This document shows, piece after piece, positions 45,081 to 47,041 of a stretch of 64,000 nt of DNA. Positions within the stretch are counted from its first letter, which is position 1, and each line of letters opens with the position of its first letter. The position numbers and the translations under genes were made by a program. Origin of the DNA: Escherichia coli (GTDB lineage Bacteria; Pseudomonadota; Gammaproteobacteria; Enterobacterales; Enterobacteriaceae); assembly GCF_016026235.1 (NCBI RefSeq), contig NZ_CP065613.1; one strand, written 5' to 3'. The notes below the pieces were generated by a model. That model had not been told where the DNA came from and ran no database searches. It was given only the letters and a program-made list of their open reading frames with translations.

Positions 45081-47041
45081 TCAGGCGGCGGTGTTCGCCA
45101 TACGTTGTTCGCGGTTTATCGCCTGCAAGGCGGAGACATCAACAATCAGTGCCACGCTGCCGTCGCCAAGAATGGTCGCAGCAGAAATGCCGGGGACTTT
45201 GCGATAGTTACTTTCAAGGTTTTTAACTACAACCTGATGTTGACCAATTAATTGATCCACCAGCAAGGCGTAGCGGCGACCGCCACTTTGTAAGATCACC
45301 ACAATTCCCTAGGTAGCTTCGGTTTTCGCGCCCGCGACGTTGAACACTTTCCACAGTTCGACGATGGGCAGATATTCACCCCGCACTTCCAGCACCCGCT
45401 CGCCGCCGGCCAGTGGATGGAGATCGGCTTCACGGGGTTGCAGTGATTCCATAACAGCATTCAGCGGCAGAATGAAAACTTCATCCGCAACGCGTACGGA
45501 CATGCCGTCGAGGATGGCCAGCGTCAGCGGCAGTAAAATGCGGATCGTAGTGCCAGTACCCTGCTTCGACTGGATTTCGACATGACCGCCCATCTCCTGG
45601 ATATTACGTTTAACGACGTCCATGCCGACGCCGCGCCCGGAGACGTCGGTGACCTGCTCTGCCGTGGAGAAGCCTGGTGCAAATATCAGCATCGCGACTT
45701 CGTCGTCGCTCATGTTTTCGCTGACAGTCAAACCTTGCGAGGCCGCTTTTGCCAGAATTCGCTCACGGTTTAGCCCCGCCCCATCGTCGGTCACTTCAAT
45801 GCAAATGTTGCCGCCCTGATGTTCGGCAGACAGAATTAAATTTCCGACGCTGTTTTTACCTGCGGCGAGCCGTTTTTCTGGCAGTTCAATACCGTGATCG
45901 AGGCTATTGCGTACCAGGTGGGTCAGCGGGTCGATAATGCGTTCTATCAGGCTTTTGTCGAGTTCAGTAGAACTGCCCACCAGCGTCAGTTCTACCTGCT
46001 TGCCGAGTTTTCCCGCCAGATCACGCACCAGCCGGGGATAGCGACTAAAAACATATTCCATCGGCATCATGCGAATCGACATCACTGATTCCTGCAAATC
46101 ACGGGCGTTACGTTGTAACTGCCCCATGCTGGTTATCAAATCACCATGATTAACCGGGTCCAGTTCGCTGGAACGCTGGGCAAGCATGGACTGGGTGATA
46201 ACCAGCTCGCCGACGAGGTTAATTAATTGATCAACCTTTTCGCTACACGGATGCTGGTGGATTCATTGCTGCGCGTCGTTTTTTCCCGCTCCACGCGGCC
46301 GGTTGGCGCTTGTTCGGCTGCCAGTTTAAGCACTGGTGGGGTGGATATTTTTGGCGAGACTTCTACTGTTTCAAAGGTAATCTGATCGGCTTCAATCACA
46401 AAACAGAGTACCGCTGTGATGTCATCTTCGGCGATGTCGCCCGGTAATATTGCCGAGAGCGAATCCGCCCCTTTCACCACGTCAGTTAACGTTGTCAGAT
46501 GTCCCAGTTCTTCTTCCAGCAGGTCGACTTCCCCGGCCTTCAGGCGCGAAAGGATAATTCGTCGCGGCGACTGACTGCGATTCTGCTCATCTTGCGGTTC
46601 ACTTTTGGCAACCACACTTAATCGGGTCACTGCGGATGGCGTTTCGCCTTTCGCTTCTAATGCCAGTTGACGCAAGGCCTGGCAGATATAATCGAAGCTG
46701 GCGGCATCCGGCTCTTGCGACTGTTTATAAGCGTCGAGCTGTTCTTGCATGATGTCCTTCGTTTCCAAAAACAGATTGATAATGTCGGTGTTGAGTTGCA
46801 TCTCACCTCGTCTGGCTTCATCGAGCAGGTTTTCCATCAGATGCGTGGTTTCCTGCAAAACGCTGAAGCCAAAAGTTCCTGCCCCTCCTTTGATCGAGTG
46901 GGCAGCCCGAAAGATGGCATTCAATTGTTCGGCATCTGGCGCTTCCGGCTGCAAAACCAGCAGATGCTGCTCCATGTCAGCCAACAGTTCGTCCGCTTCA
47001 TCAAAAAATGTCTGATAAAAATCGCTTATATCCATGCTCAC
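45081..47041 (-). pseudogene. cheA: Chemotaxis histidine kinase CheA, inactivated by a frameshift and an amber codon
   Basis: N-terminal two-thirds in ORF 46223..47095 ending ...[12 protein letters not shown]; natural frame resumes in ORF 45309..46187 (MLAQRSSELDPVNHG...) which stops at TAG 45309-45311 inside CCTAGG; remaining CheW-like domain in ORF 45081..45302; total span 1961 nt = intact length minus 4. Confidence 0.85.

Follow-up and report, generated by a model that had tools for sequence, protein, structure and literature searches.

Loss of motility in Shigella and EIEC has been described as a decay of the flagellar and chemotaxis genes through point mutations and IS insertions (PMC10732612, PMC5156508, PMC4319576), and EIEC are generally non-motile (PMC5156508). 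The window considered here, the whole stretch of 64,000 nucleotides of Escherichia coli DNA that was analysed, comes from such a lineage. It is EIEC, identified through strain 4608-58, an O143:H26 EIEC whose MiSeq draft genome is JTCO01000001 (PMC4319576). The disabling lesions in its flagellar regulon are an ISEc60 insertion in motA, a deletion and an amber codon in cheA, and an amber codon in flhB. Motility loss in EIEC and Shigella is recognised by multiple independent lesions, and these are found here; the related strain FDAARGOS_943 adds a cheZ frameshift. Our subject is the 4-bp deletion in cheA. We consider it very probable that this is a genuine, spontaneous deletion that arrived as a neutral, late second hit in an already non-functional gene of a decaying EIEC motility regulon.

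The cheA gene is flanked by motB and cheW and keeps its place in the motA-motB-cheA-cheW operon, in the same order as in K-12 and FDAARGOS_943. An uninterrupted cheA frame of 654 codons is absent, since codon 268 is hit by a 4-bp deletion and codon 579 has become an amber. The parts of the gene are as follows:

45081..47041, minus strand: cheA pseudogene, from the GTG start at 47041 to the natural TGA at 45083-45081; 1961 nt, against 1965 nt when intact
46226..47041, minus strand: N-terminal fragment, 267 native amino acids plus KRLIN, with the Hpt (P1) and CheY-binding (P2) domains only (Pfam)
46241..46242, minus strand: deletion junction, with GGTA or GTAG gone from GCG GTA GAA at codon 268 (reference nt 801-804, global alignment)
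46223..46225, minus strand: early TAA that ends the shifted frame once five aberrant codons (KRLIN) have been read
45312..46241, minus strand: native frame between deletion and amber, encoding the remainder of P3, HATPase_c (P4) and half of the CheW-like P5
45309..45311, minus strand: amber at Q579 (CAG>TAG), where the inner C of a Dcm site (CCAGG) has changed; the older lesion
45081..45308, minus strand: 3' cheA remnant after the amber, the last 73 codons of cheA, encoding the second half of the CheW-like P5

With its frame shifted at codon 268 and closed by a stop at codon 579, cheA in the window is a pseudogene from which the full-length kinase cannot be made. A preliminary description of this DNA had placed the end of the N-terminal frame at 46223, had the natural frame resume in the next open reading frame, and had counted 1961 nt from start to stop, four short of 1965. 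Each of these points holds. The TAA at 46225-46223 follows 267 native residues and KRLIN, the native frame is regained directly after the junction and stays open up to the amber at 45311-45309, and the span from the GTG at 47041 to the TGA ending at 45081 has the stated length.

Global alignment with the nearest intact allele, the annotated 1965-nt cheA of E. coli FDAARGOS_943, gave two differences only. At reference nt 801-804 (window junction 46242/46241) four adjacent bases are missing, and C1735T creates the Q579 amber; the alignment contained no further indels, no mismatches flanking the gap and no silent changes within cheA. The frameshifting 4-bp deletion that the preliminary description had proposed upstream of the amber is therefore a simple gap, with no other indel structure. 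The bases it had named were incorrect, as it took GTGG to have been lost from an ancestral GCGGTGGAAAAGG. The undeleted site reads GCGGTAGAAAAGG in all 23 of the undeleted copies that were fetched, K-12 and FDAARGOS_943 included. Since the ancestral codons are GCG GTA GAA AAG, the bases lost are GGTA or, equivalently, GTAG, with one G of ambiguity.

The junction itself offers no evident mutational signature for a 4-bp loss and has no Dcm-type hotspot context. At GCGGTAGAAAAGG no mononucleotide run or tandem 4-mer has changed in length, and the A4 run that adjoins the gap is intact, with no A missing. Copies from the same clone show no length variation, and the junction is identical in five independent copies. 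Two candidate origins were rejected. Microhomology or slippage would have only a single G to act on, and the imperfect hexamer repeat GTAGCG/GTAGAA predicts an in-frame loss of 6 bp, not the observed 4 bp.

The order of the two cheA lesions can be read from relatives of the window. The exact 578-aa CheA that would result from the amber alone is present on 5 contigs. One of these, from GCA_902503985.1, matches the window from 48306 to 42309 (6 kb), reaching 70 bp into the end of the motA IS, and differs only by retaining the 4 bp and by two SNPs; its flhB is intact. Together with other genomes it forms a nested series. K-12 is ancestral at all scored sites. GCA_902503985.1 has motB R308R, the cheA amber, tap A90V and the motA IS. 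GCA_018228405.1 adds tar Q410Q, with flhB still intact. In the window, 4608-58 and GCA_900449985.1, the deletion, cheB S12L and flhB W345am are present in addition. The exact step at which the deletion entered is bracketed, as the fetched locus of GCA_018228405.1 begins 3' of the deletion site and covers only sequence on that side.

As the sister GCA_902503985.1 carries the motA IS and the amber without the deletion, the comparison of these sequences shows that the amber came first and that the deletion is the younger, second hit in cheA. From the presence of two lesions, the preliminary description had concluded that inactivation was old enough for a second hit to accumulate. The two hits stand; their age is only relative, with 8 SNPs in 21 kb (~0.04%) separating the amber-only from the deleted lineages.

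The reverse order, with cheA inactivated by the deletion before it gained the amber, would be hard to judge from one genome, as a single genome cannot settle the order and an upstream deletion masks the amber in translation. Counter to this, GCA_902503985.1 has the motA IS and the amber on a nearly identical haplotype and yet keeps the 4 bp. No deletion-only genome was found, and the gap occurs in 0 of the 5362 complete genomes matched by a junction probe. A deletion without the amber would leave an exact 368-aa C-terminal open reading frame; among the 10 places listed for this ORF (24 of 689 index blocks), none had the 272-aa partner that the deletion would produce. All 10 belong to other lineages, with N-terminal cheA ORFs unlike that partner, and in 7 of them the N-terminal ORF ends where a -1 frameshift in an A-run near nt 758, as on Logan contig L007, would stop. 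We regard a deletion-first history as improbable.

To place the two lesions in their region, we compared the window with FDAARGOS_943, its closest complete relative, from flhC to flhE and found 9 substitutions and 2 indels in 16.9 kb. With K-12 as the outgroup to polarise these differences, the changes derived in the window are motB R308R, the cheA deletion, cheA Q579am, tar Q410Q, tap A90V, cheB S12L and flhB W345am (34528). Two disabling lesions lie outside cheA:

48236..49528, no strand assigned: ISEc60 (IS4 family), 1293 bp, in motA, with a 10-bp target duplication GGAAAGTCCC at 48226-48235 and 49529-49538
34527..34529, minus strand: flhB W345 amber (TGG>TAG in CCTGG, a Dcm target), derived, removing the last 38 residues

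The ISEc60 insertion in motA lies upstream of cheA in the same operon and is common to the amber-only sister lineage. The transposase frame of this copy looks split into several ORFs. Every assembly with the cheA deletion whose sequence extends over both sites also has the flhB amber, which the amber-only sister lacks.

FDAARGOS_943 itself carries about 38 copies of ISEc60, none of them in motA. It retains intact cheA and motA genes and has its own lesions and changes. These include motA A216V, motB P84L and, absent from the window, a cheZ frameshift caused by one extra T and IS1 copies in araF and ftnB. On its contig the last three are:

24380-25025: cheZ frameshift
3211-4491: IS1 in ftnB
5288-7054: IS1 in araF

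Because FDAARGOS_943 keeps cheA and motA and has a cheZ frameshift and IS1 insertions of its own, the two branches are decaying independently, in parallel, as would be expected of EIEC.

Other features of the window lie outside this comparison of lesions. Between cheZ and flhB, an insert of two genes (35797-38026, plus strand) has no counterpart in K-12. One codes for a protein of 502 aa that PADLOC assigns to the dGTPase type of anti-phage defence (PDLC02374, E 1e-70); the other is an ORF of 250 aa that matched no family. In the low-coordinate third of the window there are three copies of an IS600-like element with a 272-aa orfB (4754-6017, 15821-17084 and 19408-20677). An integrase-like gene at 18253-19425 adjoins one of these copies and is only ~95% identical to the copy in FDAARGOS_943.

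Two hits in one gene might suggest that the second was positively selected, for instance to abolish a harmful truncated CheA(1-578). Arguing for this, both differences from the nearest intact allele are disabling and there are no silent changes in cheA. However, the double hit is unremarkable given the regional density of derived events: 8 events in 16.9 kb give an expectation of 0.93 for cheA and a Poisson probability of 0.24 for two or more, so that an excess beyond chance was rejected. The amber, moreover, is a hotspot mutation, the operon was already interrupted upstream by the IS, and amber-only strains persist in several lineages. Selection for the second hit thus seems very unlikely, and we prefer neutral accumulation of the deletion in a gene that had already been lost.

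The nature of the amber bears on this reading. The change converts ACC CAG GG to ACC TAG GG, a C>T transition at the inner C of a CCWGG site (CCAGG). Deamination of Dcm 5-methylcytosine reportedly accounts for amber hotspots in lacI, as observed by Coulondre and colleagues in 1978. The rule relating 5-methylcytosine deamination to amber hotspots is described in PMC12606429. Of 5426 complete E. coli genomes, 8 have Q579amber. Their cheA haplotypes lie 6 to 48 nt from that of the window and represent at least 4 unrelated backgrounds besides it; two further Logan haplotypes (contigs L007 and L008) show the amber as well. In the six amber genomes that were fetched, cheA is annotated with an "internal stop", and the adjacent motB, cheW and tar have no pseudogene flag. 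Because the same change recurs on unrelated backgrounds, the cheA amber can be read as a recurrent hotspot nonsense mutation at a Dcm site, and it most probably arose by deamination of the methylated cytosine at CCAGG. No dcm gene was found in the annotated parts of the window.

The same process may extend to the region as a whole. Three of the six substitutions derived in the window fall on Dcm targets; these are the transitions in tar (Q410Q), cheA (the amber) and flhB (W345am), at 43183, 45311 and 34528. With 102 Dcm target positions in the 16.9 kb, the binomial probability is ~4e-6. This points to deamination of 5-methylcytosine as the main source of recent point mutations in the 16.9-kb flagellar region. 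We also considered the more far-reaching idea that E. coli strains repeatedly, and perhaps under selection, switch off receptor-coupled chemotaxis at codon 579 of CheA, and that the EIEC clade lost chemotaxis there first, with the deletion following later. This is speculative, and we think it probably incorrect.

The consequences for the protein follow from the domain map of intact CheA, in which Pfam recognises:

residues 8-100: Hpt
residues 161-223: CheY-binding
residues 261-324: H-kinase_dim
residues 372-508: HATPase_c
residues 514-640: CheW-like

In the window, all five domains are still recognisable by Pfam, spread over three fragments, with H-kinase_dim split between two of them. The deletion breaks CheA seven residues into the dimerisation domain; therefore what remains from the native start is a P1-P2 stub, in which Pfam matched Hpt (8-100) and CheY-binding (161-223) and gave no match to H-kinase_dim. 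In the native frame downstream (45312..46241), the earliest ATG is at 46187 and opens a 292-aa ORF. The amber then halves the CheW-like P5 domain, and the 73-aa ORF beyond it matches CheW profile positions 71-133 (Pfam). Given the established functions of the CheA domains, either lesion alone should abolish receptor-coupled kinase activity.

A split but functional cheA, with the P1-P2 stub and a downstream kinase fragment acting in trans or with recoding that restores the frame, deserves brief consideration. Both fragments retain recognisable domains, and P1 set free from the rest of CheA is in vitro a substrate for trans-phosphorylation by kinase-core fragments, which would favour such an arrangement. 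Counter to this, the downstream ORF is without the first 26 residues of the dimerisation domain, the amber removes half of P5, and the junction lies in neither a slippery sequence nor a repeat. Every intact E. coli encodes CheA as a single polypeptide. With motA interrupted by an IS and a stop in flhB, there would be no working motor or export apparatus left to control. We find a functional split hardly credible, and treat the fragments as remnants of a dead gene.

The deletion is also reproduced outside the window. A megablast search with the cheA region (2101-nt query) matched 5380 complete E. coli genomes, with FDAARGOS_943 as the best match, and every match listed spans 2105 nt. The 70-nt junction probe matched its 5362 complete genomes in each case at 70/74 identity, with 4 extra bases. 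Four public sources share the gap, namely JTCO01000001, GCA_900449985.1 and the Logan assemblies of SRR3578993 and SRR30892832. The first three carry both the gap and the amber; the SRR30892832 contig ends before the amber. Compared over 2.4-11.6 kb, the four show 0-1 base differences to the window. The frameshift product of 272 aa occurs, letter for letter, on 20 public contigs, and one of the public assemblies annotates a fragment as "chemotaxis protein CheA" (STM86612.1). On this evidence, the deletion appears confined to a single clade or sub-clade and absent from the complete E. coli genomes in RefSeq.

A sequencing or assembly artefact, which the adjoining AAAA run and support from assemblies rather than read pile-ups might favour, is exceedingly improbable, as GGTA/GTAG is not part of a homopolymer, the 272-aa product recurs on those 20 contigs, and at least four further assemblies of independent origin, the MiSeq draft of 4608-58 among them, show the identical gap. 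The preliminary description had named a homopolymer artefact as what would overturn its reading; the site is no homopolymer and the gap is reproduced in independent assemblies. For practical purposes, the deletion can be taken as real.

We thus return to the deletion as a late and neutral event, for which the following course is proposed. ISEc60 entered motA and the Q579 amber arose in cheA before the deletion. A spontaneous loss of GGTA/GTAG at codon 268 would then have occurred in the EIEC lineage that includes O143:H26 strain 4608-58. With the frame shifted, translation from the cheA start would end five codons on, at the TAA, and the predicted product is a P1-P2 stub without dimerisation, kinase or receptor-coupling domains. 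We infer that the deletion was fixed by neutral drift in an already dead gene and that the cheA remnant is not expressed. The deletion would belong to the youngest layer in the stepwise decay of the flagellar and chemotaxis regulon and would have no function of its own.

Annotation should give cheA as a pseudogene and record the frameshift as well as the internal stop; beyond this the lesion has very little importance. Its modest value lies in showing, cleanly and in order, how decay proceeds by steps in an EIEC clade: the motA IS and the hotspot amber come first, silent or missense changes follow, and the 4-bp deletion and the flhB amber come last. The case also illustrates how half of a region's derived point changes can fall on Dcm sites, and the lesions could mark the lineage of an O143-type EIEC sub-clade.

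Set beside intact E. coli CheA, a class II histidine kinase with domains P1-P5, the window allele is identical to that of FDAARGOS_943 apart from its two lesions. Both share the motB-cheA-cheW synteny and five recognisable Pfam domains, whereas in the window the frame is lost at codon 268 and meets a stop at codon 579. Compared with the Dcm amber hotspots of lacI, the cheA amber is alike, with CAG>TAG at the second C of CCAGG and recurrence on unrelated backgrounds. The 4-bp deletion differs from these in being without hotspot context and confined to a single clade. Our literature search on cheA lesions in Shigella and EIEC returned general statements on motility loss, and the codon-268 allele, which occurs in one sub-clade only, is not described there. 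In its overall pattern, however, the window resembles the motility decay of Shigella and EIEC, with IS, nonsense and frameshift lesions spread over motA, cheA and flhB. The 4-bp deletion is ordinary pseudogene decay of a known kind in an EIEC clade.
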